The notes below the pieces were generated by a model that saw nothing but the letters and a program-made list of their open reading frames with translations, ran no database searches and was not told where the DNA came from. From Eledone cirrhosa (Eukaryota), in NCBI GenBank assembly GCA_964016885.1, contig OZ024743.1:295802001-295866000 (forward strand): a stretch of 64,000 bases of DNA. Direction: 5' to 3'. Below, in pieces: positions 4,261 to 55,713 of this stretch. Numbering within the stretch: position 1 is the first letter of the stretch; every line of letters starts with the position of its first letter. The translations under genes and the position numbers were made by a program.

Positions 4261-4469
4261 ACATCCACTTATAATAGTTGTTTCTACTTTTGGCACAAGG
4301 CCAGCAATTATCTCAGTGCATTACTGGTACTTTATTTTATCAACCTCGTAAGGGTGAAAGGCAAAGTTAACCTCGGCGGGATTTGAACTCAGAATGGCAA
4401 GGGCCGTAACTCTATGCGTCAAAGCATGGTGTCCTCTCTACCGATACTGCCAATCCACATCCACTTATA
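4261..4469 (-). mobile_element. SINE family A with target-site duplication
   Basis: Reverse complement of the 6448 copy, flanked by the direct repeat acatccacttata (4261-4273 and 4457-4469). Confidence 0.9.
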
Positions 4470-5679: not shown

Positions 5680-6447
5680 GTGTGTGTGTGTGTGTATGTA
5701 CATAATACACCCCCACACACCCATCCACCCCCACACATATGTATAAATATACATATATGTGTGTGTGTGCGTGTGTGTATTACCTTGGACATATTTATGT
5801 TCCCTACAAAGACATTCATATGAGTTATATAAACATAGAATATACACATAAAGCCTTTAGCTGCGTCACTACTAAAAACAATGCTATTTACAAATTATAA
5901 ATGTATGTGTGATGTCGTGGTAGATGTAATGTAAACAACAATAATATTTACACGTGATGTATTGGTTTAAAGTGATGAAATTCGCAGTGATAGAACTGAC
6001 TCATCGAAAACAGTGTATCATCAGAATTCAAGTTCCACCGAGGTAAGCGTCGTTTTTAATCTGTCTCAGGTAAATAAATACCAGTCAACTACTCGGATCG
6101 ATTTTTCTCACACCCTCTTTCATTCTCTTTCCTTTCTCCTTTCTCTTTCTCTCACTCTTTCTTTCTCTCTCTCTCTCTCTCATATTCTCTCTACGCTGTG
6201 CTTTTAAATCAAAAGATTTATCACGCTGATTCGGCCTGTCACAGAATGGCATCTTGGGTAAGTGTATACACGGAATACTCAGCCGACTACATGTTAATAT
6301 TACGCATAGGAATAAATTGAGTTCATTAACTAAACTTGCATCTTTGACATCGATGAAAAACATCTATGGCTAGCCATTGATAGAAAGAGCGATACTGGAG
6401 ATCAGATCGATTTACAGACCAAAGATGGTTTATATTATATCTAAATA

Positions 6448-6637
6448 CGGGCGGTGGATTGGCAGTATCGGTGGAGGGTCGGACGCCATGCTTTCCAGTA
6501 TAGTTACGTCCCTTTACGATCTGAGTTCAAATACCGCCGAGGTTGACTTTGCCTTTCATCCTTACGGGGTCGATAAAATAAAGTACCAGTAATGCACTAG
6601 GTAATTGCTGGCCTTGTGCCTAAAGTAGAAACAATTA
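6448..6637 (+). mobile_element. Full-length SINE family A with target-site duplication
   Basis: A box tggcagtatcgg, B box gagttcaaatacc, 3' end aaagtagaaacaatta; flanked by duplicated attatatctaaatac. Confidence 0.92.
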
Positions 6638-8989
6638 TATCTAAATACCCACAAATATGTTAAGGTTATATATTTTATTGCTAGAGAGACATCTGTATAC
6701 TTTGTTAACTTCCATAATTATCACTGGGATTTAAACGTGTTTATCGGTATAACATTTGAAGAAGATTATCAAGACTCATTAAACATTAATTTGATACTCA
6801 AGATGTCTCCAGACGAGTTCTCCTGGGGTTATTTCCCGTATTGCTACAAAACGAAAAATATAATATCAGTTAATGACTAATACTGTTTATTTAGTCACCA
6901 TATATTTATTTTATTTGTTTAACCTTTCATGCATTAATTATGCTATTAACGATTTATGAATCATATATAACCTTACTCAATGAATATTTGCTTTAAAATA
7001 TTCAATATGTGGTCTGAATACTTTTATTGATTTAAAGGCTAGAGATGCCTCAGAAAATAGTTAGTCGTTCGCTTGTTATACCTTTAGGGTGTGTCAAAAT
7101 CTTGATGCATTCAACTGTGGCTTTAATCAAAATATTGAAAAACACATAAAGCGGAAACGCGATGTCGTGAAGTATAAGTATTTTCCCTTGAGTGTCTAAA
7201 ATAAATACCCAATCTGTACATATAAGTTAATGTGAGGCGTAGCATGACTGACAGTTAGTTATTTCAAATGTTTCAAGGATTAAAAAAATAGTAATTCGAC
7301 CGTGACAGTGTTTGAACTCCGAGTGGTAGTAAAGTATTGATGCGTGCCGAAGAGAGTAAAATTACAATAGTTAAAATTGGGGAGTGGTACATTCGTTTTT
7401 CCCGACATCATCGGTTCATGTAAAAAAGAAAAAAAGTGTAATCGTACATACAGTAAAACATCAGACTAATTGCAGCGAATTCAATCAAGAGTTTCAACTG
7501 ACAACTTAATTTTTAATCGCCAGAAGCTTATAAACTATTAGCATCACAAAGACAAAATGTAGCCTGAGGAATGTAATGTAAGCTCGCATAGACAAAGTTA
7601 GTGAGTCTGGTTAAGTTCTTATACGTAGAATAAATAGATTATAGACACTTCTTCCGGAAAGAGGAAAAAAGAACATTTCTCTGTCAGATATATGAATATC
7701 GTCTCACGATGTTTAATATAGCTTACTATGTTCACAAACACATGCTATAATATAGTATGTCATATTTCCCTTTCTACATCCACAATAACAATCTGTGATC
7801 GACTTTCAACGGAACAAAGATAAAATTCACATGGACAGGAATAGAAATAAAATTGTGTTGATGAAACCAAATAGTTTAAGCCATTTAGTCGAATGTCCTA
7901 CAACTGATACAGACGCTATTATGTTGCTTGCGAATAAATGGCATTTATTTGATTATTCACTTATGTCGTGTAGAAAAATGAAATTTTTATGTTCACACTT
8001 TATTAAACTTCATCCATGACTGACAATAAATAGAAAGCTTGTAGCGCAAGTGGCAAACAACTTGCATTAACAACTCCATTTTCCTTCCAAACTTGTCCTA
8101 AATAACAAAGGAGTATGTTTGTTTTATGGGCAACGCATTCTCTAAAACATTTCAATGAAGATATATTATGCTTCACTTGGTTCACCGGGTATATAGTTTT
8201 TACAATACTTTCATTTCATATTTAGACACAATACAATGCATTTTATATGAAATATTTACAAGAATGTTTTACATATTTGCCTTTCGAAATCAGAGCAACA
8301 AATTAAAATAATAGCTGCGTAAAAGTTTCTTGACATAATTGAAACCGGATCGTCAACACGTCTCACCGACAGCTTATATTTTACTACATTGTGTTCTTCC
8401 TACATATAGAAATAAGAAATAAAGTTTTTTTTTTACAATATCTTCATTTCCATTCGGCAGATTTCTTGCTCTTTTCTTTTCTTTTTTTTTTTGTTATTTT
8501 CTTGAATCGTTAATATAAATTTCACCATCTTATGAGATCAGGGCAAATGTGAGAGAATTCTAGTTATAATATGCCCTCAGGTTAGCATATTGAAATTATG
8601 TCTTTTTCGTCACTTTTTGAATTCTTTGTCTTTCTGAAAACTTTTAGAATCTACTTTTCTCTTTTATGAAAATTAATAACTATTTTTATATATTATTTTT
8701 TTCTTTCTCTCTATTGCTGTATAATTGGAAATTTTGCCAAGTTATAGTCTTTATTTAAATTATTTCGTATAAATTATTATTTTGTTTCAGCTTAGTTTTC
8801 CATAAGTTCCTTAGTTATTAGAAGTGGTTTGGTTTAGTTTTCTTCTTACTTTCTGTTTCTTTTTGTTTACTTTTCTTTATGTTCATAAATTCCTTTATTT
8901 TTCTTATGTGATATTCCTCAATTTGTTCAGTCTCCTTACTTCCTTTTTCTTTTCGTCTCGGTGACAGCCTTTTTCTCCTTCTCTTTCAC

Positions 8990-9290
8990 TTCTCTTTCAC
9001 TTCTCCAACTTTTTCTTCTTCTTCTTCTTCTTCTTCTTCTTCTTCTTCTTCTTCTTCTTCTTCTTCTTCTACTACTACTTTTCCTTCATTGTTTCCTCTT
9101 CCTTTTTTTATTTTATTTCTTCCACCTCTTCCTCTTCCTCCTCCTCCTCCTTCTTCGTCATTCCATTGTCTTTTCCATCGTCATGTCCTCCGTCTCATTC
9201 ATTTTTCTCTTTCATCGCCTTCTCCATCCTCTCCCTTTTCCTTTATCTTCTTCCCCTTCCTCTTCTTCTTCTTATTATTATTATTATTAC
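8990..9290. repeat. (CTT)n microsatellite and pyrimidine-rich low-complexity tract
   Basis: Direct reading. Confidence 0.9.
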
Positions 9291-9294
9291 TAAA

Positions 9295-9479
9295 GGGCGG
9301 TGAATTGGCAGTATCGGTAGAGGGTTGGACGCCATGCTTTCTAGCATAGTTACGTCCCTTTACAGTCTAAGTTCAAATCCCGCCGAGGTTAACTTTGCCT
9401 TTCATCCTTACGGGGTCGATAAAATAAAGTACCAATAATGTACTGGGTAATTGCTGGCCTTGTGCGTAAAGTAGAAACA

Positions 9480-9517
<38 letters not shown>

Positions 9518-10460: not shown

Positions 10461-10610
10461 CGTCGGCTCATCCAGATCAGTTTTGTAGCAAAGCTGGAAC
10501 TGAAGACTTTGGTTTCCGATTATTTGTTCAGCTAAAAATAGCAGCGAACACGCCATTCTTAATCGTTCAGAGGCCAGGCGTATATAAATCTTATTATTAA
10601 CATTATTTTC

Positions 10611-10792
10611 GCAGTATCAGTAGAGGCTCGGACGCCATGCTTTCCAGCATAGTTACGTCCCTTTACAATCTGAGTTCAAATCCCGCCGAGGTTGACTTTG
10701 CCTTTCATCCTTACGGGGTCGATAAAATAAAGTACCAGTAATGCACTGGGTAATTGCTGGCCTTGTGCCTAAAGTAGAGACAATTATTTTCG
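10611..10792 (+). mobile_element. SINE family A, slightly 5'-truncated, with target-site duplication
   Basis: Similar to the 6448 copy; attattttcgc is duplicated on both sides. Confidence 0.9.
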
Positions 10793-13133: not shown

Positions 13134-15322
13134 CTAAGGCGGGTAAAATTCCCGAGATCCATGGACGAGTTCTCTCCAGTGGTCTCTGTCCCTCATTATC
13201 GCTGCCATGTCCTGCGTCTCCAACAGACCAGTGTCTGTCCTTAGGGCATCAACATACGTTAACCTTGGTCTTCCTCTTCTAGTGTGTCCATGTAGGGGCT
13301 CCCAAAGGAGCACTGAGTGCAATGTCAACTCTGGATGTCGGTGAGCATGTCCAGCTAACCTCAGTCTCCTCTGTGTCACTTTTGAGCTGACTTTTGGGAT
13401 GCTCCCATACAGCTCTGAGTTTTTCATCCTCAGTGTATACTAATTAATGTTCAGAGCTACCCTCAGCATTCTCGTGTAGCACCCATCCACCATCTGAGTG
13501 AGTTTCTTGGTCAGTGTCCAAGTATCAGACCCATACAGCAGCACAGACTCCAATACAGCAATGAAGAGGCGGATTTTCAGGTCTCTACGAAGGTCCGACT
13601 TCCACACCGATCTCAAGCTGTGGCACGCCGCCCAGGCTTTGCTCTTCCTCTCAACCACATCATATTCCGTATTCCCAATCTTTGCTCCCAAATACAGGAA
13701 GCCCTCAACCAATTCTAGCGGCTTCCCGCTTACATTAGTGATCCCCTCTGGCTTCTCAACATTCTCTACCAGATATTTTGTTTTAGTCTCATTCATTTTC
13801 AGCCCCACACTCATCGACACAGTCTCAACCCCCCGCATCAAATCCTCTGCCTCCTTCACTGTATTTGTCACCAAAACTATGTCGTCGGCAAATTCAGCAT
13901 CCGATACCTTTTTCGCCCTAACTCTCCTGCTCTGAGCCGGTGCTACAGTAAAGCCAGTTTTTCTCCAGTTCAAGGCGCATACAATAGTCCACTACGATGA
14001 TAAAAAGGTAGGGAGCCAATGTATCTCCCTGGAGCACTCTAGCCAGTATCTCAAAGAACTCTGTCATCCCATCAGGTGTAATGACATGGGCTTTGGTGTT
14101 GGTGTAGAGCAGTGATATCAGGTCCACTATTTTCTTAGGGATTCCATAAGCCTGTAAGATCTTCATCAGGCAGTAACGGTCCACAGAATCAAAGGCCTTC
14201 CTAAAGTCAATGAAAACCATGTCCGCAGGAAGGCACTTTGCTCTAGCTCCCTCTAATATCCTCCTCAGCATCAGGATGTGACTGGTGGTTGATCTACCCT
14301 CTCTGAAGCCGTTCTGGTTGTTCCTGAGCTTCTTCTCCATCTCAGGCTGGATCCTGTTAAGAATCATCCTGTTGCGAGTCTTTGCCACAAGTGACGTCAG
14401 TGAGATCCCCCTGTAGTTGTTGGTGTTAGAGAGATCTCCCTTCTTTGGCACAGGGACGATGTTACTGATCCTCCACTGATTCGGGGCAACTCCTTTCTCC
14501 AGTGCCCCGTTACAGAACCCCAGGATGATATCATCAAAATCACACCTCTTCATCGCCTCTGATGCCACTCCATCTTCTCCATGAGCCTTGCCCTCCTTGA
14601 TCCTCTTCTTGGCTCTCTGAAGCTCCTCTCTGGTGAAGGGCTCTGTCTCAACATCCAGTTCCTCAAACAGCTGCCTGATCTCCCCAGTATTCTGGGCTGT
14701 GGAGGGTGGCTCTCCTAGTAGGGTCCTAAAATGTTCTAGCCGTTTCCTCTTCCTATCCTCGGGCCCCGTTCCCTGGATTTCACTCGAACACCTTCTCTTC
14801 CTCCCTGTGATCTCGTTGATGATCATCCAGCTCTCCTTACATCCAGATCTGTCAACCGCTCTGATCTTCTCTATCAGTGCCTCCTCTCTGACCTCAGTGT
14901 AAGCGGTACAGAGCTCTTCCCTCATCACCTCCACAGTCTCCATCCTCTTCTCCGTAGGATCAGCATAGAATTGGTCCTTTGCATCTTTCAGGTGTTCTCT
15001 GGCTGCACACACTTTTGGGTTTGCAGAGCTGACGTGCTTCACTTTGTTCTTTTTCCTCGGCACCAGGGTTTCACTTGCTTCCGCCACTGCATTGGTGAAG
15101 TGCCCGTACCTCCTTGTCACACTCTCCTCAGTCCATCCAATCTCTCTCTCTCCTCTGACTCTCCACACAGAGTACTAAACCTGTTTCTCACTTCCACTGT
15201 TAACCTCTCCTGTAGCTGATCATCTTCCTTGAAAGCTCCCCAGTCATAGATTGCTCTCCGGGGCCGAGCCTTGCTCTTTCTTAAGCTCACCCGGACCTCA
15301 CTCATAACAAGCCGGTGGTCAC

Positions 15323-16791: not shown

Positions 16792-17869
<1,078 letters not shown>

Positions 17870-17971
17870 TATTCATATATACATGTATATTAATCACCTC
17901 ATTTACACAGACGAGAAAAGTATATATTCTCACCTGTCTTCTAGTCCAGCAGTCGCAAGCGGTGGGAGGGA

Positions 17972-18013
17972 CCGTCCTGACGAAGGCCAGTTAAGCCTGA
18001 AATGCATAGACAG
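17972..18013 (+). ncRNA. Minimal type-I hammerhead ribozyme
   Basis: CCGUC-CUGACGA-AGGC CAGUUAA GCCU-GAAA UGCA UA^GACAG, with palindromic stem III AUGCAU. Confidence 0.78.
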
Positions 18014-18123
18014 TTGTCCCCTTTGCTTCTGCTGGACATCACCAGAGGGAGATAGCCCCCCGGTGTTTGCATAGCAACGGCTTCCTAAAGCCGTATTTCT
18101 TTGGAGATACGAAATATTTATAC

Positions 18124-18168
<45 letters not shown>

Positions 18169-18218
18169 AAGTATGACCCCAATGGCAGAGCTCAAGCCGT
18201 TTCGACGGTTATTTCCGG

Positions 18219-19140
18219 ACTCCGGCCAAATTCCAACTCACTGAACAAACATTAGGAAATAAGTGATTATATTCCCAATTATGTGTTCGGGGTGCTAACT
18301 AAAAGTATTGCGTGGAAAATTGGCTGTATTATTTCATATGAGACATATCTAATATATCTCTTCCCAGACGGACGTCTCGTTTCATTATAGGATTCCTACA
18401 ATTTGGGTGAAATTATACCAATTTATGTAGGAGCTTGTATACCATCAATAGATATATATTCAAGTGGGCTCCTATAATTCATCAGTGGGTGCCCCAATAA
18501 TACTAATATTGATAATCTAACCAACATCAGCATTTAGCGATAATCACTTCCTTTGCCTGAGGTATCTGTCAGGTTGCCAGTCCAGCAGTTCTGAAAGAAG
18601 TGCTCGAACTGATTCAAAAAATGAGGAAGTGAATTACAGCCAAAAAAAACAATACATGCGCGTGACAATGAGCTCTGAAAGGAATTCAGGCCACGTGCTA
18701 AGAACTAAATTAGAAATTGAAAAAATATCTATGTGTGTACAAGATTTGATGACACACACAGATATTTTCTCGGGCAAAATAACAGAATGATATATAAGGA
18801 ACAATCAATATTCATATATAAAAAATAAACAAAGAAATGCTAACCTTATACCGGGAATTTTTTTCAAATCTGCTGCGCCAAGAGTAAGTAAATAAATACA
18901 ATATCGGAGAAAGCTTTTTAGCGATACTCCGGCCAAATTCCAACTCACTCAACAAACATTAGGAAATAAGTGATTATATTCCCAATTATGTGTTCGGGGT
19001 GGTAACTAAAAGTATTGCGTGGAAAATTGGCTGTATTATTTCAAATGAGACATATCTAATATATCTCTTCCCAGACGGACGTCTCGTTTCATTATAGGAT
19101 TCCTACAATTTGGGTGAAATTATACCAATTTCTGTAGGAT
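18219..19140 (-). mobile_element. ORF-less PLE-like or retrozyme-like element with a direct repeat (period 707 bp)
   Basis: 18219-18432 is repeated at 18926-19139. It carries the HHR at 18363-18489 and lies between (TA)n tracts. Confidence 0.75.
18363..18489 (-). ncRNA. Type-I hammerhead with a large branched stem II
   Basis: CCCA-CUGAUGA-AUUAUAGGA[77 nt]UCCUAUAAU-GAAACG AGACGUC CGUC^UGGG. Confidence 0.82.
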
Positions 19141-19149
19141 TTATATATA

Positions 19150-19373
<224 letters not shown>

Positions 19374-19664
19374 AAAACAAATAACGAAACGAAATTAAAT
19401 TTCGTTTCGTTTGTAACTCACTTTTGTATGACTGACGCTTAAACAATTAAGTTAAAAATGTACATCCACATATGTATACTGAAATACTAGTATGCATATG
19501 AATACACACACGTGTACATATGTAGATGTACCGAGTTTTTCACTGGACACTTTACTGTGAGTGTTCAGCTAGTCTGTATGTAAACACACAGACAAACCGG
19601 TTTTTAGAGTCATACTGGTTTTCGAGGAAAGACCTTTCCTCTATTCTCCAGAAAGCCAGACAGG

Positions 19665-19709
19665 AATATTGGACTAGTTTCGATGTTGTTACATCTCATC
19701 AGCAATATT
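19665..19709 (-). ncRNA. Type-I hammerhead ribozyme, array copy 1
   Basis: AAUAUUG-CUGAUGA-GAUGU AACA ACAUC-GAAAC UA GUC^CAAUAUU. Confidence 0.92.
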
Positions 19710-20129
19710 TACCTATCCTCCGGCCTTTCTAGAGAATCGTAAAAGCACATATCGTTATATGCTTTTTCTATGAAAATTAGTAGTGGGCAGACTAATTTGC
19801 ATAGAGCGTGAGTACGTACCGGTTCAGCGGAGACGATAAAAACAAATAACGAAACGAAATTAAATTTCGTTTCGTTTGTAACTCACTTTTGTATGACTGA
19901 CGCTTAAACAATTAAGTTAAAAATGTACATCCACATATGTATACTGAAATACTAGTATGCATATGAATACACACACGTGTACATATGTAGATGTACCGAG
20001 TTTTTCCCTGGACACTTTACTGTGAGTGTTCAGCTAGTCTGTATGTAAACACACAGACAAACCGGTTTTTAGAGTCATACTGGTTTTCGAGGAAAGACCT
20101 TTCCTCTATTCTCCAGAAAGCCAGACAGG

Positions 20130-20174
20130 AATATTGGACTAGTTTCGATGTTGTTACATCTCATCAGCAATATT
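20130..20174 (-). ncRNA. Type-I hammerhead ribozyme, array copy 2
   Basis: Identical to copy 1, offset by 465 bp. Confidence 0.92.
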
Positions 20175-20667
20175 TACCAATCCTCCGGCCTTTCTAGAGA
20201 ATCGTAAAAGCACATATCGTTATATGCTTTTTCTATGAAAATTAGTAGTGGGCAAACTAATTTGCATAGAGCGTGAGTACGTACCGGTTCAGCGGAGACG
20301 ATAAAAACAAACCGGTTTGTCTGTGTGTTTACATACAGACTAGCTGAACACTCACAGTAAAGTGTCCAGTGAAAAACTCGGTACATCTACATATGTACAC
20401 GTGTGTGTATTCATATGCATACTAGTATTTCAGTATACATATGTGGATGTACATGTTTAACTTAATTGTTTAAGCGTCATTCATACAAAAGTGAGTTACA
20501 AACGAAACGAAATTTAATTTCGTTTCGTTATTTGTTTTTATCGTCTCCGCTGAACCGGTACGTACTCACGCTCTATGCAAATTAGTCTGCCCACTACTAA
20601 TTTTCATAGAAAAAGCATATAAGGATATGTGCTTTTACGATTCTCTAGAAAGGCCGGAGGATAGGTA

Positions 20668-20712
20668 AATATTGCTGATGAGATGTAACAACATCGAAAC
20701 TAGTCCAATATT
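20668..20712 (+). ncRNA. Type-I hammerhead ribozyme, array copy 3
   Basis: aatattg-ctgatga-gatgt aaca acatc-gaaac ta gtc^caatatt; predicted cut after C20705. Confidence 0.92.
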
Positions 20713-21132
20713 CCTGTCTGGCTTTCTGGAGAATAGAGGAAAGGTCTTTCCTCGAAAACCAGTATGACTCTAAAAACCGGTTTGTCTGTGTGTTTACATA
20801 CAGACTAGCTGAACACTCACAGTAAAGTGTCCAGTGAAAAACTCGGTACATCTACATATGTACACGTGTGTGTATTCATATGCATACTAGTATTTCAGTA
20901 TACATATGTGGATGTACATTTTTAACTTAATTGTTTAAGCGTCATTCATACAAAAGTGAGTTACAAACGAAACGAAATTTAATTTCGTTTCGTTATTTGA
21001 TTTTATCGTCTCCGCTGAACCGGTACGTACTCACGCTCTATGCAAATTAGTCTGCCCACTACTAATTTTCATAGAAAAAGCATATAACGATATGTGCTTT
21101 TACGATTCTCTAGAAAGGCCGGAGGATAGGTA

Positions 21133-21177
21133 AATATTGCTGATGAGATGTAACAACATCGAAACTAGTCCAATATT
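21133..21177 (+). ncRNA. Type-I hammerhead ribozyme, array copy 4
   Basis: Identical to copy 3, offset by 465 bp; predicted cut after C21170. Confidence 0.92.
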
Positions 21178-21406
21178 CCTGTCTGGCTTTCTGGAGAATA
21201 GAGGAAAGGTGTTTCCTCGAAAACCAGTATGACTCTAAAAACCGGTTTGTCTGTGTGTTTACATATACACTAGCTGAACACTCACAGTAAAGTGTCCAGT
21301 GAAAAACTCGGTACATCTACATATGTACACGTGTGTGTATTCATATGCATACTAGTATTTCAGTATACATATGTGGATGTACATTTTTAACTTAATTGTT
21401 TATATT

Positions 21407-21608
<202 letters not shown>

Positions 21609-21819
21609 ACACGGGTGTGTATGAGTGTGTATAGAAGATTATATTAATAAAAGGAATTCCGACTTTCTTTGATTTACTCGTTTTATTTACAATCCTTTAA
21701 AATTTATAATGGTATTAGAATGAAATAGTATGTTTGAATATTAAATGTTAAGTGTTAATTGAACATATACAGTGAAAAGTGGCTCCAGAATGCTAAATCT
21801 TGCAAACTGTATTTCGACC

Positions 21820-23997
<2,178 letters not shown>

Positions 23998-25682: not shown

Positions 25683-26046
25683 TGTTATATATATATATAC
25701 ATACATACACATATACATACACGTACAAATACACATACATATACATATACATACATACACACATATATATCAACATATCCATACATACACATACAAATAC
25801 ACAAACACACACACACATGTATATATATATATATATACATCTAGTATTAAGGATACTATTTATGGTTATGTATATACTAAAACCTTTTATAGTTATATAT
25901 ATTTTAAACCCTAAACAGTGAAAGTCAGTAATTTCTTACTACCTTATTACCAGTAAGATAAATAGCTCAATGTAATAACATCAGTTGTTCTACAGAGCAG
26001 TTATATAGAATACACAGGAATCAAAGCTATGTTCAAAGCATTTATT

Positions 26047-26093
26047 CGCTTACAATTGTTTCATCCAAACCGAGGCTTGGTATCTTCGGAGCA
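26047..26093 (-). ncRNA. Hammerhead-like motif with CCGAAGA core
   Basis: UGCU-CCGAAGA-ua CCAAGCC uc GGUUUGG au-GAAAC AAUU GUA^AGCG. Confidence 0.6.
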
Positions 26094-26754
26094 TTTTTCA
26101 ATGTTTGTACACATACATGACCTCCTTTCCAACGCAAGAGACATACAGATATATATGTATATATTGATGTACAGTGGAGTGACATATATTATATTATTTC
26201 TGAATGGCAATTTAAGTTCAAAAACAAAATCACATTAAAACAGAATCAAAGCACAATAAAAATTAAAATACAACATCAATGCAAAATTAAAATACAATCG
26301 TCAGTTAACGTAGATAATGCAAGAGGATAGTTTGTTAGTCAGTTGTAGTAGTTATTGTATGCATTAGTTACACGTGGGGCATGCACGTGTGTCTTATTTA
26401 TATATGATTATTGTGCGGCAGGGTGTTAGATTTAATACAATCATATATAAATAAGACACACGTGCATGCCCCACGTGTAACTAATGCATACAATATCTAC
26501 TACAACTGACTAACAAACTATCCTCTTGCATTATCTACGTTAACTGCCGTTTGTATTTTAATTTTGCATTGATGTTATATTTTAATTTTTATTGTGCTTT
26601 GATTCTGTTTTAATGTGATTTTGTTTTTGAACTTAAATTGCCATTCAGAAATAATATAATATATGTCACTCCACTGTACATCAATATATACATATGTATT
26701 TGTATGTTTCTTGCGTTGGAAAGGAGGTCATGTATGTGTACAAACATTGAAAAA

Positions 26755-26801
26755 TGCTCCGAAGACACCAAGCCTCGGTTTGGATGAAACAATTGTAAGC
26801 A
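26755..26801 (+). ncRNA. Hammerhead-like motif with CCGAAGA core
   Basis: UGCU-CCGAAGA-ca CCAAGCC uc GGUUUGG au-GAAAC AAUU GUA^AGCA. Confidence 0.6.
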
Positions 26802-27218
26802 AATAAATGCTTTGAACATAGCTTTGATTCCTGTGTATTCTATATATATACATCTATATATACATACATACATACAATCATGCACATATACACACGTACA
26901 TACACACACATACATACACACATATATACACGCATACATACGCATACACAAATATAGATATATGTATACATACCTACATACGCACACACACAAATAATTA
27001 TAAGAAACAACATAATGATAAAAATACCGTCACATAAGAATAAAATAAATGTAAAAATTATTATAAAGTTGACAGCGATACAGGCAACAAATAAATGAAC
27101 AAACACACGTGGTAAGCAATACACACAATTGCACATACACACATAAAAATAAATACATACACACACACACACACATACAAATACATATACATATACACAT
27201 ACATACACATACACATAT

Positions 27219-30429: not shown

Positions 30430-31511
30430 ACCATTCTTTCATCTCATACATATATACATGATTACTTGTAGCCTGGTCAGTTGGAGTTCATGTACTTTTG
30501 CATGTCGCTTGAGCCCTCCTGCTGATTTACATTCTCTACCACATGTTTTGCAAGCATGATGAGTAGCATCTCCAACAGCAGCCTGGTACTCAACCACTGG
30601 TCTTAATTTATGACTGCGAAGATGACTTTCGAATCCAGCTTTGCTTAGGCAGAATCTCGCACAGACGCTGCATGTCAGCACCACAGGAGGACTCTCTCCG
30701 TCTGGAAGTGCAACAGCAATGCCCTTCCTCACATCCCGCTTTACTTTCTCGTATGCGATTCGAGATGCCTCAAAGGTAACTTTTCCCTCATATACAGTCT
30801 TTCTCCATTTATTACGATCAGCAGCAATATTTTCCCATGTATCAGCAGTGATGTTAGCGTCTTTCAAAGAGGCTTTCAAGGAATCCTTATACCTCTTTTT
30901 TGGTTTATGTGGCGGTTGTTTTCCTTTAACTAACTCTCCATAAAAGAGTTGTTTTGGTATCTAGAATCCTTCATCCTGGCAAGGTGACCACTCCAACGGA
31001 GTCGTTGCTTATGCACAAGAGTTTCTATACTGTCACACATGGAACTTTCCAAAATCTCGACATCACTGATGTGGTCCCTCCAGTGAAATATATACTAACA
31101 TACATGGTGGCTGCCAACTCGTTTTCGAGTACGGGCACTACTCTATATCCATGTAGGAGAAGCCCTACCGATGCACTAAACGAGTGTGACTTTTTAGTCT
31201 AGCCAGCGACTTGAAAACTCTGGTACAAACATTACACCTGTGACAATTATTGACACATAGTGCTGGGCCCATGGTACCATGTGACGACAAGGGCAGAGAG
31301 ATCTCCAGATATAAAGCAATGCCTGTGCCGTGAAGCTTTTATAGTGAACAAAGGCACTGCACAAAGCCAGTCCCACTCTCTTAACCAAGATGATATTTAC
31401 CAAAAAGAAGAACAAGTCAACATCATTGGATACCATCAGGGTTGCAGGTGTTATATCAGAGTTCTCCTTCTCCTAGAATTCTGCCTTGACAAAGGCTAAG
31501 GGGTCATCTCT
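30430..31511 (-). mobile_element. 3' part of an RTE/BovB-type LINE with two C-terminal C2H2 zinc fingers
   Basis: KRYKDSLKASLK...WENIAADRNKWRK followed by CSVCARFCLSKAGFESHLRSH and CKTCGRECKSAGGLKRHAKVH. Confidence 0.85.
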
Positions 31512-36283: not shown

Positions 36284-36892
36284 GATATAGATATATATAT
36301 ATATATATGTAACATTTTATAGCCTAGTGTAGTCAAAACGAGATACTTTTATATATATTAAAATAGATTCAGTTATTAACCTCGTGACTTTCAGCCTTTT
36401 ATTCTACTGATATTTATATAACACTATAGAAATAAATTTTAATAACCGATGGTTAAATGGGTATTCGATAAGGCTTATTGAATACCTGAGATGAATGATA
36501 GATGGTGGATAGTCGTATGTTAGATCACAATCACTGTGTCAGTGATTTATTGATTTCTTTTTAAACATATGCAATACTTCTCTTTGTGAGGTATTAGTGG
36601 ATACAATCGATTGGATAGCTTATAAAAATGTATTGGTACTGCATTATCAATTTTGTATTGGTGAAGGATTGAAGTATGGCACGGTAGTAATGACTAAATA
36701 TACTGAACTAGGGATTCAGTTATGCCCTGATGTAATATTAAAACAGAGAATGCTTATGACCTTCATATATATATATAAAGAGAGAGAGAAACACACACAC
36801 ACGCGCGCGCGCGTATATATATATATAAGTTTATTCCAGGTTCAATAGGGGGTAACCACAGTAAGTAAAGTACTAAATACATAGCAGAGTAT

Positions 36893-37020
36893 AAATATTT
36901 AATATAGAAATGGCTTCTACAAAACTAGAACTGTTTCATTCGGGAGAAATCATCAGGAAGCCCTGATGATTTCTCCCGAAGGAAACAGTTCTAATCCTGT
37001 AGAAGCCATTTCTATATTAA

Positions 37021-37024
<4 letters not shown>
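36893..37024. repeat. ~130-bp palindrome made of two back-to-back hammerhead motifs
   Basis: aatatttaatatagaaatggcttctaca...catcagg aagc cctgatg...tgtagaagccatttctatattaaatat. Confidence 0.9.
36912..36962 (-). ncRNA. Type-I hammerhead ribozyme
   Basis: GGCUUC-CUGAUGA-UUUC UCCC GAAU-GAAACAG UUCUAGUU UUGUA^GAAGCC. The plus-strand partner at 36963-37007 lacks the 5' strand of stem I. Confidence 0.8.
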
Positions 37025-37113
<89 letters not shown>

Positions 37114-37286
37114 GGGGGGGGGGAGAAAAAGGATGAAGAATTGATTACGTGTATTTAGGCGTTTATTTTCTATTGACTTGTTGCACACGTTTCGTGGAGG
37201 ATTGACTCAAAACCATCCATAGCAATATTGGCCCCGGTTCGAGACAGAGAAGGGGAATGGAAGAGAGAGAGGGCTGGTGGTGTTGT

Positions 37287-37335
<49 letters not shown>

Positions 37336-37467
37336 GTTATATAGTAAGGTGTATTATTGGTTGTGTAAAACGGTCCAATAAATTGTTGTCAGCAATATTA
37401 AGTTCTCCACCTTTAGTATATCTCCAATTTCATTCAAGGGAACAGCTAGATGATGTAAAACGGAGTA

Positions 37468-40505
<3,038 letters not shown>

Positions 40506-40872
40506 ATATGTGTGTCTGTGTATATGTGTGTGTGTGTCTACGACCAGTGCATATAGATCACAGACACCCACATACACACACATATATATATATATATGTA
40601 TACACACACACACATTTATATATATAAATACACACACGGATATATATGGGTCGTCCAGATTCATTTCACATTATATACCCGTCTCTGTATATGTTAGTTA
40701 TTTAAAAATGATTTTTAAGTGAACATGATGTTAAAAAGATATTTTGAAGTGAACGTGACCCGTTGGGTCACGGGTGGTCTAGTATATAATAAAATTAACG
40801 AAGATCGCTGGTATTAAATCAATGAACTTCGGCCAGTGTCAGGCGAATATATATATATAAAAGAGTAAAAGA

Positions 40873-40905
<33 letters not shown>

Positions 40906-40917
40906 AAAAGGTTCAGG

Positions 40918-41011
40918 ACCCCGACGGCAGAGCTGAAGCCGTTTCGACGGCTATTTCTGGACTAAATTAGATTTGAAACGTGGTAATAAATAGCCGAACC
41001 TTTCAAGGAGT
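40918..41011 (-). ncRNA. Hammerhead of the U3-A8 family (UUGAAAG core in this copy)
   Basis: ACUCC-UUGAAAG-GUUCGGCUAUUU...AAAUAGCCGUC-GAAACGGC UUCAGCUCU GCCGUC^GGGGU. Confidence 0.7.
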
Positions 41012-41593
41012 AATTCCATATATGGGCATGCGATAATCATGCATATCTGAAGGTTGTAGTTGTCAAAAGCATTGGTCAAAATTTCTTGTAAACAGAGTTA
41101 AATCTTTCATTCATGCATGAATGAATACACTAAGCTTTAGATTTTATAGAAAGTACAACCACAGATTCCAACCAACATCATATATTTTGGTTTCTATCAA
41201 TTCCCTGGGGAATTGGTTGACCAAATGCTTTGCTTAATTGTTTTATGTTTATTTATTTAAAAAATTAATATTTAAAAATTTAAAAAAATGTAATTTTTTA
41301 ATTTTTATTTTTTAAGATTCCTTAGAATTAAGATTCCTGTAGAATTCTTTTTTCGCTTGCTTTCTAGCTAGCCTATTTCATCAACACTCCTTAGAATTTG
41401 CTGTATAGAACTTACTTTCAACGCCTGGCCGGCATCACCCACTCCCTCATTGTTCTACAGGCAAGTCCTCCACCTCCACCCTTTACCCACCGCCATGAAA
41501 GATTTAACTGTATTTACAAGAAAGTTTGACCAATCCTTCTGACAACTACAACCTTCAGAAATGCATGATTATCGCATGCCCATATATGGAATT

Positions 41594-41687
41594 ACCCCTT
41601 GAAAAGTTCGGCTATCTATTACTACGCTAAAAATCTAATTTAGTCCAGAAATAGCCGTCGAAACGGCTTCATCTCTGCCGTCAGGGT
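41594..41687 (+). ncRNA. Hammerhead with U3-A8 variant core (UUGAAAA)
   Basis: ACCCC-UUGAAAA-GUUCGGCUAU...AUAGCCGUC-GAAACGGC UUCAUCUCU GCCGUC^AGGGU. Confidence 0.75.
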
Positions 41688-41912
41688 CCTGAACCTTTTC
41701 CTGTATATTTATATATGTATATATATATATATCCTCTTTTACTCTTTTATATATATATTCGCCTGACACTGGCCGAAGTTCATTGATTTAATACCAGTGA
41801 TCTTCGTTAATTTTATTATATACTAGACCACCCGTGACCCAACGGGTCACGTTCACTTCAAAATATATTTTTAACATCATGTTCATACATATATAGACAC
41901 ACACACACACAA

Positions 41913-43194: not shown

Positions 43195-43303
<109 letters not shown>

Positions 43304-43304
43304 G

Positions 43305-43401
43305 GAACCAGTAAGACCCCGACAGCTGAGCTCAAGCCGTTTCGACGGCAGAATTAGCCGTCGAAACGGCTTGAGCTCAGCTGTCGGGGTCTTACTGGTT
43401 C
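43305..43401. repeat. Perfect 45-bp-arm hairpin made of two half-hammerheads (U3-A8 family)
   Basis: Arms 43305-43349 and 43357-43401 are exact reverse complements. Each reads GCCGUC-GAAACGGC..GCUGUC^GGGGU. Confidence 0.92.
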
Positions 43402-43481
43402 ATATTACCCACTCTACTACCTCAAGTATTGAGTACTTTGGTGCGTTATGGTCCACCTGGTTCCTTACCACATTTCCTTCG

Positions 43482-43878: not shown

Positions 43879-44009
<131 letters not shown>

Positions 44010-44098
44010 CATGAATCAAAGTTCTGTTTAAATCATTTATTTGCTTACAATTGTTTCTTCCAAACCGAGGTTTCAACACAAGAGACATATAGAAACAT

Positions 44099-45742
44099 AT
44101 GTATATATTGACCCACACGGCCATGGACAATAGTGACCTGACTAGACCCCAGATTGATGTCATACTTGCGGCCCGTAAAACAGTAATCACCTTTGAAGAC
44201 CAATTATGGACTCGCAACGATACGCAAAACAACTTCGACATAACCATGGGATCTAGTGACTCGGCGCAGGTCACTGATTTAGTCGGCCTATATTTACTTA
44301 ACGAAATCCATAAGGACCTTCCATACCTCAACGGTGGTTTGTACCGCGATGATGCACTTCTACTTATAGATTATAAAAAATTCAATATAGAAAGAACCAG
44401 AAAACTATTGCACAAGACATTCAAAAACTATAACCTTAGTATTACCATGGACAAAAACACTAAAACCGTTAACTTCCTGGACGCCACCCTCTACCTAGAC
44501 TCAAAGATATATGCACCTTTCCACAAACCTAATGAAAAACTCATTTACGTAGATACCAAGTCTAACCACCCTAGATCTATATTAAACTCTATCTCTAAGG
44601 GAATATCTAATAGAATCTCTAATCTATCCTATGACGTAAACATATTTAGCAAAAACTCGCAATATTATAATCAGGCATTAGCTAGATCAGGCCATAATAT
44701 AGAGAATGAGTTCCTACCTACAAAAACACATAGCTACAACATTGTTTCGAACAACATGTCCATGAGGAAATTTAGTAATAGGAATAGCAACCACACACAC
44801 ACTAATACGGAGGATGCCAACAAAAGTAACCCACACCACAGAAATTACCATAGTACCATAAAAGGAAACAACTCACCAGACATAAAAAACAAAAATAGAA
44901 GAAGAAATAATACATTTTTCAACCCTCCTTTCAATCTAAACGTCTCTACCAACCTACCTAGGGCTTTCTTCTCACTACTAGATAAAAACTTCCCATTCGG
45001 CCATAAGTACCATAGCCTTTTAAACAAAAACACAATTAAAATCTCCTACTCTACTACGCTTAACATAGCATACCACATAGCTATTAGCAATAAAAGAAAA
45101 ATTAATTCTTACTTCCAGCAAACTAAATCACAACAGACGATAAACCTTCAAAATAACATTATAGCAACTAACCCGAATATCAATAGAAATAATAGTAATA
45201 ACACTAGTGTAAACAATAATGCTGGGAACGTCAACCCACATAACCATAACCCTATAGCTACCATCCAGACTTCTACACAACATAATAACCGGCAGACTAA
45301 CACCCAGAATAATTGTAACTGTAGATCAAATAGAACCTTCCCGTTAGATAAAAAATGCTTAACCAAGGATATCATATACTCATGCACAGTCACAACTAGC
45401 AACTCTTCTGAAACCTATATAAGCTCTACTTCAAACTGCTTCAAAACCAGATACAATTCGCACCTCCCCTCTTTCAGAAAACACAGTCTAGCCAACTCCA
45501 CTTCACTATCTAGCTACATACACTATCTAAAAACTAAAAATAAACCATATACACTTAAATGGGAAGTGATAGGTAACGCGACATCGTACAAACCACATAA
45601 TAAATTTTGTAACCTCTGTCTATTAGAGACCCATACTATCATCTTCTCAAACCATAACCTCCTTAATAAAAAATCAGAAGTGTTTGCGCCTTGCCAACAC
45701 CGCTTCCGACACTCCTTCCAAAACTTTAAACCCAATATATAA
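44099..45742 (+). CDS. PLE polyprotein, C-terminal part: RT palm/thumb, Asn-rich linker, GIY-YIG endonuclease
   Basis: FDITMGSSDSAQVTDLVGLYLL, GLYRDD, VNFLD, YVDTKSNHP, FFNPPF, CNCR..FPL..KCL..IIY..YISST..FKTRY..H, CNLCLLE, CQHR. There is no internal stop, but the ATG lies in the inverted stub, so the native N-terminus is missing. Confidence 0.88.
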   Translation: MYILTHTAMDNSDLTRPQIDVILAARKTVITFEDQLWTRNDTQNNFDITMGSSDSAQVTDLVGLYLLNEIHKDLPYLNGGLYRDDALLLIDYKKFNIERTRKLLHKTFKNYNLSITMDKNTKTVNFLDATLYLDSKIYAPFHKPNEKLIYVDTKSNHPRSILNSISKGISNRISNLSYDVNIFSKNSQYYNQALARSGHNIENEFLPTKTHSYNIVSNNMSMRKFSNRNSNHTHTNTEDANKSNPHHRNYHSTIKGNNSPDIKNKNRRRNNTFFNPPFNLNVSTNLPRAFFSLLDKNFPFGHKYHSLLNKNTIKISYSTTLNIAYHIAISNKRKINSYFQQTKSQQTINLQNNIIATNPNINRNNSNNTSVNNNAGNVNPHNHNPIATIQTSTQHNNRQTNTQNNCNCRSNRTFPLDKKCLTKDIIYSCTVTTSNSSETYISSTSNCFKTRYNSHLPSFRKHSLANSTSLSSYIHYLKTKNKPYTLKWEVIGNATSYKPHNKFCNLCLLETHTIIFSNHNLLNKKSEVFAPCQHRFRHSFQNFKPNI

Positions 45743-47214
45743 CAATGTCAGACTTGAACCCGTCACCACCTCTAGCAGCAATCATCAGGGGCACACCTTA
45801 CACCTCATCTCCACACCCATTAATCCACTTTAACGCAAATAGTGACATCCTCCTAATACCTTTTACCCTAGAGATATCCCCATGTACTTCTACTTTTGGT
45901 ATATTGGCCTTCAATTACTTAGACTACATTACACCAATGTAAACTTTAAGCACGGAATTGGTTGTGCTAACATTGTCCTGTGTATGTAGTGCCATCATTG
46001 GATAAATGGAAGATTAAGTAATTAATTTATTAACATAAAAGAGCTATATAAGCTATATGCTGAGTGCAATGAATTATGTACAGGTGATGTATGAGTTATA
46101 AATACATGTATGACTTGATGGTCAGATTAGTGTCTTTGTAAGTGAGAATTGATCTCTGGACTACTCTAGTGATATTTAACTTTGCCATGCAATCAGACAT
46201 GCAATGACCCAGAGCTTACCAGGAGTCATATATAGAAGTGATTCTAATAAGACCCTGCCAGGTTCTGCGGGTGGACTACACTTACAAAGATCATTGATTT
46301 GGAGATCTGACTCTTCATGTGGAATATTCGGTGAGGGCACTCTATGATAGAAGGTAATCACCCTAATATGAACACCTTTAGTACTTCTTGATAGACTATA
46401 CTGTAATTTATAGATAAGATACTTAAATTTAGAAATTGTTTATAACTTTATATGATAGAAACTCATTTGAGACACCATTAATATACTTTAGGATAATAAA
46501 CTTAGCTATAGAAATCAGCTAGTTACCTCCACTTACGCATTAACTCCCCTTAATCACACACACACTTCCGGAATATAGTACGATGTCATCTCTCACAACA
46601 AAAACAACCTGCTCTATAGAATCGAATTAAAGAACGACAAGCTGTGATGTTCTAGCATGGTTCACCAGGCACCCAATGTTGAATCATCGTGGATTGTGAG
46701 ATGGACATGTAGTCTATAAATTACGTTTCCTGGATTGTGAGAGTGGTGGTGTGTACGAGGACAGTGGTGCTGTTTTGCTTCTCATTTGTAATATTTTTGA
46801 TATTTTTGGTGTTTCTCCACACACGGGCTTCTATATCGTAGAGGTGTGTGTGAATAATGCTTTACCAGTACAGCCCCCATGATGCTCTTGATTGCCTGCT
46901 TTGACTGCTTGTTTTACATGTAACAATCTGCCGTAGTATAATCTTGTATAAATAGGACAAGCGTGCACGCCACACGTATGACTGTTGCATACACTGGCTA
47001 CTCCAAACTTTCCTCTTGCTTTATCTTAGTAAACTGCCAATGTTTTATTTTAATTTTAATTTTAATTTTAATTTTAACTTTAACTTTGTCCTTTAAATTA
47101 CCATGCTATATTATTATAATGGATGTCAACCCACTGTGGGTCAATATATACATATGTTTCTATATGTCTCTTGTGTTGAAAAGGAGGTCAAGTATGTTAA
47201 AAATCACTGAATAA

Positions 47215-47263
47215 TTGCTCCGAAGACCCCAAACCTCGGTTTGGAAGAAACAATTGTAAGTAA
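47215..47263 (+). ncRNA. Hammerhead-like motif (CCGAAGA core) in the PLE 3' pLTR
   Basis: UUGCU-CCGAAGA-cc CCAAACC uc GGUUUGG aa-GAAAC AAUU GUA^AGUAA. Confidence 0.62.
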
Positions 47264-47502
47264 ATAAATGATTTAAACAGAACTTTGATTCATGTAATCT
47301 CTATATAACTGCTCTGTAAAACAACTGATGTTGTTACATTGAGCTATTTATCTTACTGGCAATAAGATAGTAATAAATTACTGTCTTTCACTATTTAGGG
47401 TATAAAATATATATAACTATAAAAGGTTTTAGTATATACATAACCATAAATAGTATCCTTAATACTATATATATATATTTATATATAAATATACATACAT
47501 AT

Positions 47503-47699: not shown

Positions 47700-47733
<34 letters not shown>

Positions 47734-47741
<8 letters not shown>

Positions 47742-47870
47742 TAAAATAACAGATTAAAGTTTAAGCAAAGAATCGGTGCTTTCACCCTTAACGTGATCTT
47801 CAGAAGATCCCGTTAAGGGTGAAAGCACCGATTCCTTGCTTAAACTTTAATCTGATATTTTAATAAATAT
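47734..47870. repeat. Palindrome centred on a hammerhead-like core
   Basis: gatcttc-a-gaagatc is centred at 47802. The plus arm reads CAGAAGA-UCCC GUUAA GGGU-GAAAGC..GCUU^AAACU. A related fragment lies at 51690-51741 (-). Confidence 0.85.
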
Positions 47871-47956
47871 TTGCTCTACGGTTCTTATATATTTGATATA
47901 TATTTATCCTTATCGAGCCCTCTTTGGATTTTAGTCTTCAAAGTTATAATTATTAC

Positions 47957-50224: not shown

Positions 50225-50610
50225 GTCGGACAACGTGCTTTGCGGCATAGAGTTACGTCTCTTTAAATTCTGACTTCATATCACACGGAGTTCAGCTCTG
50301 CTTTCATCCTTACGTTCTCGATAAAATATAGTACCACTAACGCACTGTAGTCGGTTTAATCGACATCTCCAAACCGAAAATCGCTGGCCTTGTGTCTAAA
50401 TCAGGAACCATTATTATACAGCGAACAATATGCTTTGCACACATTTTGTTACGGTGCATTACGTTCTGAGTTAAAGTTCCGCCGATATCTATTTAGCGAT
50501 ACATCCTTCAAGGATCGATAAAATAAAGTTCCAATCACGCACTGGGATCGAGATTATTTACTTTCCTTCACAAATTGTTGGCCCTGTGCCTAAATTAGAA
50601 ATCAATATTA
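50225..50610 (+). mobile_element. Two adjacent old SINE family A copies
   Basis: Degenerate ctttcatcct..cgataaaata.agtacca..gctggccttgtg.ctaaat..gaa.c.atta appears twice. Confidence 0.7.
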
Positions 50611-50894: not shown

Positions 50895-51520
50895 ATTACA
50901 ATTTTGTTTCTCGCCCTAGAACAGTTGACACGTAAATGTAAGTATGCATACGTATACACACACACACACATATATACACACACACTCACACACATATATA
51001 TATGTATACACACATATATACATATTCATATGTACGTATGTGTTATATCGAATATTAATAATATTCGATTCGTTTGTAAACAAACGGTCCTATTAAAGCT
51101 GTGTCGTGCCGATGACAAATCGTCAGCTGTTTCTTCAACACTGGCATTGAGGAACATTCAACATGTTTCTGGCTCATTAATCTTCATCAGGACAGCATAC
51201 CTCTGCCAGTCTGTTGAACGGTTGAAAATATATAGTATTTTCTTAAGTACACATCGGCTGAGTAGCCTCATTTGCATACCGAGCGAGTTACGGCTGAGCG
51301 TGCCGAAATCTAAAAATAAAATTAGAATTTTATTTCTCGCCCTAACAGAGCTGATACATAAATGTAATTATGCATACGTATACACACACACACACACACA
51401 CATATTTATATATAGATAGATATAGATATGCACACACATGTATATACATCTACATATGTACGTACAACTATAACCCATACGTACATATGCATATGTATAT
51501 ATGTGCGTGTATATATATAC

Positions 51521-51581
<61 letters not shown>

Positions 51582-51655
51582 TGTATATGTGTGTGTACGT
51601 GTGCAAACTTACATTTATGTATCAGCTGTACTAGGGTGGGGGAAAAAATTCTAAT

Positions 51656-51686
<31 letters not shown>

Positions 51687-51866: not shown

Positions 51867-52093
51867 GAACAGTGTTTTCATAATTGTTTCTACTTTTGGC
51901 ACCAGGCCAGCAATTATCCCAGTGCATTACTGGTACTTTATTTTATCGACCCCGTAAGGATGAAAGGCAAAGTTAACCGCGGTGGGATTTGAACTCAGAT
52001 CATAAAGGGAGTTAACTCTATGCTTCAAAGCATGGCGCCCGATCCTCTACCGATACTGCCAATCCACTGCCCTATGAACAATGTTTTCATAAT
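51867..52093 (-). mobile_element. SINE family A with target-site duplication
   Basis: Reverse complement of the 6448 copy, flanked by gaaca(g/a)tgttttcataat. Confidence 0.9.
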
Positions 52094-54620: not shown

Positions 54621-54829
54621 ATCTTTCCAGGCATTTACTTTCGTATTTACATCTATATCAGTCTTTCCTTACTACATTTTCATTTGTCTATTTACGTGAG
54701 TTTTCGCTGCTGTCCGATCAATTCAACACATACAGACTCCTCTATGATGGCATGTCAGCGGACATACACAAATACACTCATGCACTCACACATGCATACA
54801 CTCACACATTCATACGCACACACACATAC

Positions 54830-54931
54830 ATACGTATAAATAGGCATATGCCCAAGGCACAAAGGCATAATAAATAAATATATACATATGCGTGTGCCAC
54901 TCTGTGTATGTGTGTACGTATATAGATATAA

Positions 54932-55008
<77 letters not shown>

Positions 55009-55023
55009 TATATGTGTGTGTCG

Positions 55024-55068
<45 letters not shown>

Positions 55069-55071
55069 TTT

Positions 55072-55120
<49 letters not shown>

Positions 55121-55166
55121 ACATATATATATATACACACATATATATATATATACATGTATATAC

Positions 55167-55207
<41 letters not shown>

Positions 55208-55266
55208 CATATATATAATAAATAAATATATACATATGCGTGTGCCACTCTGTGTATGTGTGTACG

Positions 55267-55362
<96 letters not shown>

Positions 55363-55363
55363 C

Positions 55364-55397
<34 letters not shown>

Positions 55398-55447
55398 ATA
55401 CATATATATATATAAATACACACATATATATTTTTACATATATATAC

Positions 55448-55516
<69 letters not shown>

Positions 55517-55655
55517 TATATATTTGATAAATAAATATATACATATGCATGTGCCACTCTGTATATGTCTGTACGTATATTTATATGTATATATATATAT
55601 ACGTATATATATATGTATATATATATATATATAAATATATATGTGTGTGTGTGTG

Positions 55656-55713
<58 letters not shown>

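Follow-up and report, generated by a model that had tools for sequence, protein, structure and literature searches.

Metazoan non-LTR retrozymes have been described as low-GC tandem repeats, 150-450 bp long, that carry a type I hammerhead ribozyme (PMC7229834, Cervera and de la Pena 2020). The same work reports that coral, mussel and axolotl express retrozymes as self-paired circles, and it proposes Penelope-like elements (PLEs) as their mobilisers. A later study gives unit sizes of 51-972 bp and links the retrozymes of Xenopus to the terminal repeats (pLTRs) of PLEs (10.64898/2026.07.22.740005, Li et al. 2026). In the canonical metazoan type I design, helix III is short and palindromic and the ribozyme is active as a dimer (PMC4209133). 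The axolotl HHR_Amex1 is reported with this same dimer-type design (PMC7229834), and only one of nine predicted Xenopus retrozyme dimers cleaved in vitro (10.64898/2026.07.22.740005). For PLE insertions the literature records (TA)n targets, partial tandems and a further copy that is 5'-truncated and inverted (PMC8557442). The head-to-head form is given as their commonest, with self-priming as the proposed cause (PMC3846280), and a purified PLE protein was found to cleave AT-rich DNA and to extend both of its strands from sites internal to the RNA (PMC11167929). The route by which retrozymes return to DNA and the origin of the head-to-head form of PLEs are described as open questions (PMC7229834, PMC8557442, 10.64898/2026.07.22.740005).

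We compared these systems with a 465-bp hammerhead-bearing tandem unit that fills positions 19371-21402 of the 64,000-nucleotide stretch of DNA analysed here (the window), where it forms a head-to-head array of 4.4 copies that are about 99% identical. The interval 20542-21006, on which the initial annotation was based, is one arbitrary phase of this 465-bp repeat. We number the unit from the first base after the hammerhead cleavage site. The insertion, its arms and its ribozymes are arranged as follows.

19142..19373, unstranded: left (TA)n target tract
19371..21402, unstranded: whole insertion, a head-to-head array of the 465-bp unit in 4.4 copies
19371..20311, minus strand (sense): left arm, 941 nt, 2.02 units, running from unit position 291 to 301; 3' end abuts (TA)n
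19665..19709, minus strand: hammerhead core, outer copy of the left arm
19672..20136, minus strand: second complete monomer, in the left arm
20130..20174, minus strand: hammerhead core, inner copy of the left arm, the copy with one substitution in the extended stem I, at 20179
20309..20311, unstranded: 5'-to-5' arm junction, 3-nt overlap
20309..21402, plus strand: right arm, 1094 nt, 2.35 units, running from unit position 69 to 232; 3' end abuts (TA)n
20668..20712, plus strand: type I hammerhead core of the right arm, seen with Rfam HH9 and with a descriptor
20706..21170, plus strand: predicted monomer or circle from cleavage site to cleavage site, with cuts after 20705 and 21170
21133..21177, plus strand: second hammerhead core of the right arm
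21401..21603, unstranded: right (TA)n tract, followed by (AG)n

The unit very probably belongs to the metazoan non-LTR retrozymes, as a retroelement that is non-coding and non-autonomous, with the cycle proposed below. This fit derives from the type I hammerhead with its palindromic, dimer-type helix III, the non-coding sequence, the GC content of 37% and the 4.4 copies. Like the described retrozymes, it has one type I hammerhead per short tandem unit, is non-coding (the longest ATG frame on the sense strand has 29 aa, and an antisense frame of 68 aa gave no Pfam match at E 0.5) and lives alongside PLEs. Its exact GC content of 36.6% compares with a retrozyme criterion of below 45-50%, and the predicted circle is highly self-paired, as known circles are (PMC7229834). 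The size of 465 nt lies just above the 150-450 bp of the first study (PMC7229834) and within the 51-972 bp of the second (10.64898/2026.07.22.740005). Unlike the described retrozymes, the array is head-to-head and sits in (TA)n. The words inverted, orientation and microsatellite are absent from the main text of PMC7229834, whose supplement may still describe such layouts; in 10.64898/2026.07.22.740005 “inverted” occurs only in one reference title, and here too the supplements may hold such cases. In the openly available literature that was searched, we found no published head-to-head retrozyme insertion and no report of PLE twin priming.

The array consists of pure tandem units with permuted ends, with no LTR pair around an internal region, and no further copy of the unit occurs in the 64-kb window, which is microsatellite-dense eukaryotic DNA (127 tandem-repeat rows). 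The 3' ends of both arms lie in (TA)n, at the permuted unit positions 301 (left) and 232 (right), and their overlaps with (TA)n are just 2 and 3 nt (chance 0.22 and 0.10). Because (TA)n is present on both flanks, any target-site duplication is masked (the retrozyme criterion is more than 4 bp, when present). No arm end coincides with the cleavage site; on all four occasions where an arm passes through the cleavage junction, the junction is intact. A predicted transcript across both arms would form a double-stranded stem with 863 of 872 positions paired, a possible trigger of silencing.

All four complete units, two consecutive ones in each arm, carry the type I hammerhead motif with its core boxes intact. 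The core is built of a 7-bp helix I followed by an internal loop, CUGAUGA, a helix II of 4-5 bp, GAAA and the cleavage triplet GUC, and the palindrome ACUAGU stands where a stable helix III would be. At its gathering scores Rfam returned no match in the whole window. When matches were accepted at E up to 5, 74 were obtained, among which the four HH9 matches were the only ribozymes (E 2.8e-6 to 9.7e-6, 32.5-34.2 bits, against an HH9 gathering score of 52); the remaining matches, mostly miRNA models on purine-pyrimidine repeats, were taken as chance. Positions 1-77 of the Hammerhead_HH9 model (RF02275) align with the unit, the internal loop of helix I and the 6-nt loop 2 among them, whereas helix III of the unit is 5 nt shorter; moreover, the unit is tandem and mobile while HH9 is a single conserved locus. 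The resemblance to newt satellite 2 and axolotl HHR_Amex1, in which helix III is likewise a single pair capped by a palindromic tetraloop (PMC7229834), is one of hammerhead design.

By analogy with these ribozymes, the core design is that of a dimer-type hammerhead, and activity as a dimer is expected, in agreement with the energy model. For the 45-nt core the double fold has an energy of -16.4 kcal/mol, compared to +0.4 kcal/mol for two single active folds. In the natural right-arm transcript, too, the double hammerhead is favoured over a pair of single active folds, by 8.3 kcal/mol. The double-hammerhead fold also lies 6.3 kcal/mol above the unconstrained minimum, and therefore cleavage may be slow or need help according to this model. 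The equilibrium probability of the double-hammerhead pairs is near 0 in the nested model, and the circular minimum free energy (MFE) fold mispairs part of the hammerhead core, though helices I and II form. The host here looks like a microsatellite-rich invertebrate, and for most retrozymes of invertebrates efficient cleavage as monomers is reported, whereas the present unit is predicted to depend on dimers.

Hammerhead viroids carry a ribozyme in each polarity and replicate from RNA to RNA without a DNA stage. The unit shares with them, and with viroid-like circular RNAs, the size class, a branched self-paired fold and multimers processed by ribozymes (the latter predicted here); it differs in having a genomic DNA copy between microsatellites and a ribozyme in one polarity, since a descriptor search found no hammerhead on the antisense strand of either arm. 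The initial annotation had called the RNA viroid-style, and with the second-polarity ribozyme lacking this does not extend to replication. For the same reason we consider it extremely unlikely that the array arose by integration of an exogenous viroid-like circular RNA capable of replicating autonomously, even though size, branched fold and ribozyme resemble such an RNA and more than two turns per arm fit the copying of a circle. By its type I, dimer-dependent design the ribozyme belongs with those of metazoan genomes, and a second, unrelated candidate hammerhead of like design lies 1.4 kb away. Searches of prokaryotic-type collections, which are not where such RNAs or elements would be expected to be held, gave no exact match of a 26-nt core pattern in prokaryotic genome contigs and no blastn match of the unit in phages and plasmids (E 0.01). 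The accompanying claim of a branched circle rather than a DNA satellite poses a false choice, since retrozymes take the form of tandem DNA repeats from which circular RNAs are made (PMC7229834): here the tandem array is the DNA form, and a circle is the probable form of the RNA.

We propose the following cycle for the retrozyme, largely by analogy. The locus itself displays the anatomy, the ribozyme motif, the predicted fold, the arm geometry, the TA flanks and Hydra-like relics nearby; transcription, cleavage, circularisation and the identity of the mobilising enzyme are carried over from published families. The tandem array would be transcribed on the hammerhead strand, and neighbouring hammerheads would pair via the palindromic ACUAGU helix III into a double hammerhead and cut after GUC, giving the 465-nt monomer. 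The long stem I would hold the new ends together while a host ligase closes the circle, which, having a single hammerhead, would cut itself poorly. The RT/GIY-YIG protein of a Penelope-like element, most likely of the Hydra clade, would cut both (TA)n strands. Reverse transcription would be primed at internal sites from both target ends, each cDNA would run slightly over two turns, and the cDNA ends would be joined by 3-nt microhomology into the head-to-head array.

The window contains three relics of PLE open reading frames (22025-22953, 37976-38745 and 44093-45742). By their motif pattern they appear Hydra-like (pattern from PMC8557442): among the 120 homologues listed out of 516, CxCx5C occurs in 108, DK[T/S] in 81, RW[K/R] in 64 and DKG in 8. 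Pfam named no domain in the 549-aa PLE frame and three homologues, with one weak DUF match (E 0.09), and 22262-22636 has a sub-threshold GIY-YIG match. The element at 44009-47307 (open reading frame 44093-45742, plus strand) is a 5'-truncated PLE with an RT core (YRDD), a C-terminal endonuclease region and an Asn-rich stretch; it has a short inverted end (44009-44073) and a degenerate hammerhead core at 47220, and its 3' end at 46906-47487 is matched by 25822-26846. The relic at 21817-23148 is itself head-to-head, its open reading frame pieces point outward and CxCx5C is kept; the third relic occupies 37206-38745. Inverted structures at 16792-17183, 26002-26846 and 36890-37029 carry degenerate hammerhead-like cores that point outward in both arms. 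Thus four inverted structures share the polarity of the array, three by their hammerhead-like cores and 21817-23148 by its open reading frame, and none of the four has sequence in common with the unit. Further inverted structures are located at 40720-41885, 43301-43405, 47702-47907, 51308-51668 and 54824-56167. The arms of the inverted structures in the window are 75-94% identical, and several abut (TA)n.

This neighbourhood bears on a different account of the unit, namely that it is the pLTR of a full-length PLE outside the window and that the array is a 5'-truncated, ORF-less insertion from a linear tandem transcript, with no circle. Partial tandems, head-to-head inversion and TA targets are all PLE features (PMC8557442, PMC3846280), Xenopus retrozymes and pLTRs are related (10.64898/2026.07.22.740005), and other PLE ends in the window share the layout. 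With Hydra-clade PLEs and pLTRs in particular, the locus has in common the (TA)n targets, the partial tandem with an inverted 5'-truncated copy, and hammerheads (PMC8557442). It differs from these elements in having pure repeats: both arms traverse more than two units without any ORF sequence. Furthermore, the unit's hammerhead is of the full type, with a full-size helix I and its internal loop, while the PLE-linked cores in the window have a short helix I, and the three PLE relics show no similarity to the unit. We therefore regard a pLTR origin as improbable.

Which events could have produced the two arms of a retrozyme insertion? The polarity of the array is exactly what priming from both cut strands gives, and L1 twin priming has the same geometry. 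Self-priming by a simple fold-back fails on length whichever arm came first, provided that neither arm gained a unit afterwards: the arms outrun the available template, which would measure 872 nt for the 941-nt left arm and 698 nt for the 1094-nt right arm. The locus, from which alone this is read, suggests two primers on two templates, with both target strands primed. The unit copies vary at 10 of 465 columns, nine of these being singletons, and the exception is position 240, with G,G in the left arm and T,T in the right arm. Such an arm-specific variant is expected if each arm copied its own template more than once round; it is the lone site for the two-template reading, and the same pattern could come from tandem duplication or conversion inside one arm at a later time. 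The right arm begins at a 10-bp palindrome and the left arm at the foot of a 13-bp hairpin, where the two cDNAs may have stopped by stalling, in what is a single event. A circle and an uncleaved multimeric transcript lead to the same arms. Taken together, we tentatively view the locus as the unbroken footprint of a single insertion event: a Hydra-type Penelope enzyme would have used the two strands of a cut (TA)n tract as primers on two separate circles of the retrozyme, copying each one by rolling-circle reverse transcription for slightly more than two turns. We consider this reconstruction possible, short of an even chance.

An artefact of assembly or amplification would also give an inverted layout. 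The arms are 99% identical, and with nine singletons and eight transversions among the ten variants, consensus errors are possible. Such a share of transversions is unusual for ordinary mutation, and errors of reverse transcription or of assembly may explain it. On the other hand, the two flanks differ, no two of the four arm ends share a unit position, and one of the variants distinguishes the arms; the window also has many older inverted structures, whose arms are 85-94% identical. An artefactual origin of the inversion is accordingly very unlikely in our judgement.

The folding of the unit was analysed on the ribozyme strand and its complement. Besides the ribozyme core, the plus strand of this phase contains the following structures.

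20572..20636, plus strand: two adjacent hairpins, one of 14 bp with one mismatch and one of 11 bp with one G-U
20640..20734, plus strand: bulged stem I in its extended form, comprising four helices with 29 pairs in all and bearing the core
20846..20917, plus strand: palindrome-rich purine-pyrimidine hairpin with a 17-bp base stem
20966..20994, plus strand: perfect 13/14-bp hairpin, strand-neutral, between the arm 3' end positions 232 and 301

The initial annotation had described the unit as tiled with hairpins, with a long bulged stem I and a cluster of short palindromes, and all of this is borne out. Each of the nine arm pairs that it named is present once in 20542-21006 and pairs fully, the five named palindromes are present as well, and the four helices of stem I have mean pair probabilities of 0.84-0.91. 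Perfect 8-nt palindromes number 8, compared to a shuffle mean of 2.2, a level reached in 2 of 1000 shuffles. As a linear molecule, 20542-21006 folds at -157.1 kcal/mol on the plus strand (z -10.5) and at -141.1 kcal/mol on the minus strand (z -6.7), with none of 100 shuffles as good in either case. The circular folds of the monomer 20706-21170 likewise exceed their shuffles, at -151.7 kcal/mol (z -9.5) on the plus strand and -135.1 kcal/mol (z -6.7) on the minus strand (0/150). As a genomic control we used 98 of 137 non-overlapping 465-nt windows, with 10 shuffles each; the others either overlapped the array or consisted of microsatellite to more than 10%. The excess stability of the better strand had a median of -4.75 kcal/mol in these controls, compared to -57.7 kcal/mol for the unit, and was equalled in two of the 98, both of which are long genomic inverted repeats.

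From G-U wobbles that work only on the ribozyme strand, the initial annotation had further argued for selection on RNA structure. The plus strand is indeed the more stable: as a circular monomer it gains 16.6 kcal/mol over the minus strand (z -2.8, reached in 0/150 shuffles). Controls make the argument a weak one. An asymmetry excess at least equal to that of the unit (13.5 kcal/mol or more) occurs in 8 of the 98 control windows, four in each direction. The MFE fold has 15 G-U pairs on the ribozyme strand compared to 7 on the other, and the MFE itself selects for such pairs. The nine named arm pairs hold four G-U, three in the extended stem I and one in the hairpin at 20611-20636, and are otherwise Watson-Crick. 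When stems were set by Watson-Crick pairs alone, their internal mismatches comprised 5 G-U, 3 A-C and 6 others (one-sided p 0.36), and the G-U excess was non-significant at three stem thresholds (p 0.36, 0.36 and 0.5), with some of these stems conflicting with the MFE fold. The wobble 20945/20960 is G-G in both left-arm copies. Variable sites fall at paired positions in 6 of 10 cases, compared to 68% expected. Compensatory changes among the unit copies were seen at 0 of 10 variable sites, a count without power in 4.4 near-identical copies: they are too alike, as a single young insertion would leave them, and the variants thus neither support nor refute selection.

Divided by part, the asymmetry amounts to -11.9 kcal/mol in the 95-nt ribozyme arm and -7.6 kcal/mol in the 370-nt body, the latter reached in 1 of 100 shuffles. 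These values matter for the view that the ribozyme arm is functional while the body hairpins are by-products of fold-back inverted duplications and of purine-pyrimidine alternation, without selection on RNA structure. Most of the hairpins have Watson-Crick pairs throughout and, as DNA, are no less stable on one strand than on the other; under DNA energy rules the two strands are about equally over-stable (z -9.6 and -8.5), so most hairpins are strand-neutral. Two of the four body segments lean slightly to the minus strand, and the window has short inverted structures with 50-70 bp per arm (36890-37029 and 43301-43405). With the non-significant G-U excess and the lack of compensatory change, these observations agree with a by-product. 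Against it, the body without the ribozyme arm is over-stable at z -11.3 relative to dinucleotide shuffles and retains the asymmetry given above, all four of its segments are over-stable (z -2.9 to -6.6), 68% of the bases of the predicted monomer circle are paired, and known retrozyme circles are also highly self-paired (PMC7229834). We consider the by-product view somewhat unlikely; it bears solely on the selection claim and is compatible with the identity of the unit as a retrozyme. By analogy, the unit likely works as a structured, probably circular RNA; what speaks for this is the ribozyme and the family, not the G-U pairs.

A structured hammerhead repeat is in itself ordinary, with thousands of copies in many animal genomes, and the value of this locus is that it is a young, clean insertion. 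Made up of the unit repeat alone, the array has arm lengths and start points that can separate models where a full-length PLE cannot, namely two primers from fold-back and a circle from a linear multimer. If true, the two-primer footprint would be direct genomic evidence for the proposed partnership of PLEs and retrozymes, and it would also be evidence for an origin of head-to-head PLE insertions in two primers and not in a self-priming fold-back. Arm lengths, start sites and arm-specific variants over many loci would then read out the mechanism, and a genome-wide survey of the family would make the copying question testable from sequence alone.

Several other elements were noted in the window. 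The second candidate type I hammerhead, unrelated to the unit, is found on the plus strand in 17868-18120 (core at 17977); its helix III is the palindrome AUGCAU, its stem I is bulged, and small hairpins accompany it. It was recognised by descriptor and inspection, with Rfam giving no match, and a two-sequence alignment with the unit hammerhead was discarded as the cores were out of register. The element is a single copy ending at a (TA)n tract, and its non-ribozyme strand folds 14.9 kcal/mol better; it is possibly a monomer of another retrozyme family. Left of the array, between (TA)n tracts, 18219-18432 and 18926-19139 form a 214-bp direct repeat that is 98% identical and 707 bp apart; in this region, which contains no hammerhead core, the minus strand folds better, with an excess of -25.5 and -32.6 kcal/mol. 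A short dispersed repeat family starts at (TA)n tracts (18114-18221, 40875-40963, 41642-41732 and 43253-43405). Another dispersed repeat of about 190-200 bp, SINE-like or MITE-like, is located at 4271-4458, 6433-6638, 9282-9487, 10607-10788 and 51880-52073, with its best copies 86-95% identical and weaker copies near 985-1134 and 50225-50610. LINE-type fragments, all on the minus strand (13440-15174, 30439-30960 and 1633-2142), comprise an RT in two frames, a C2H2 zinc-finger C-terminus and a weak RT match. Finally, 17484-17775 is a 153-bp tandem duplication of 1.9 copies that are 92% identical.
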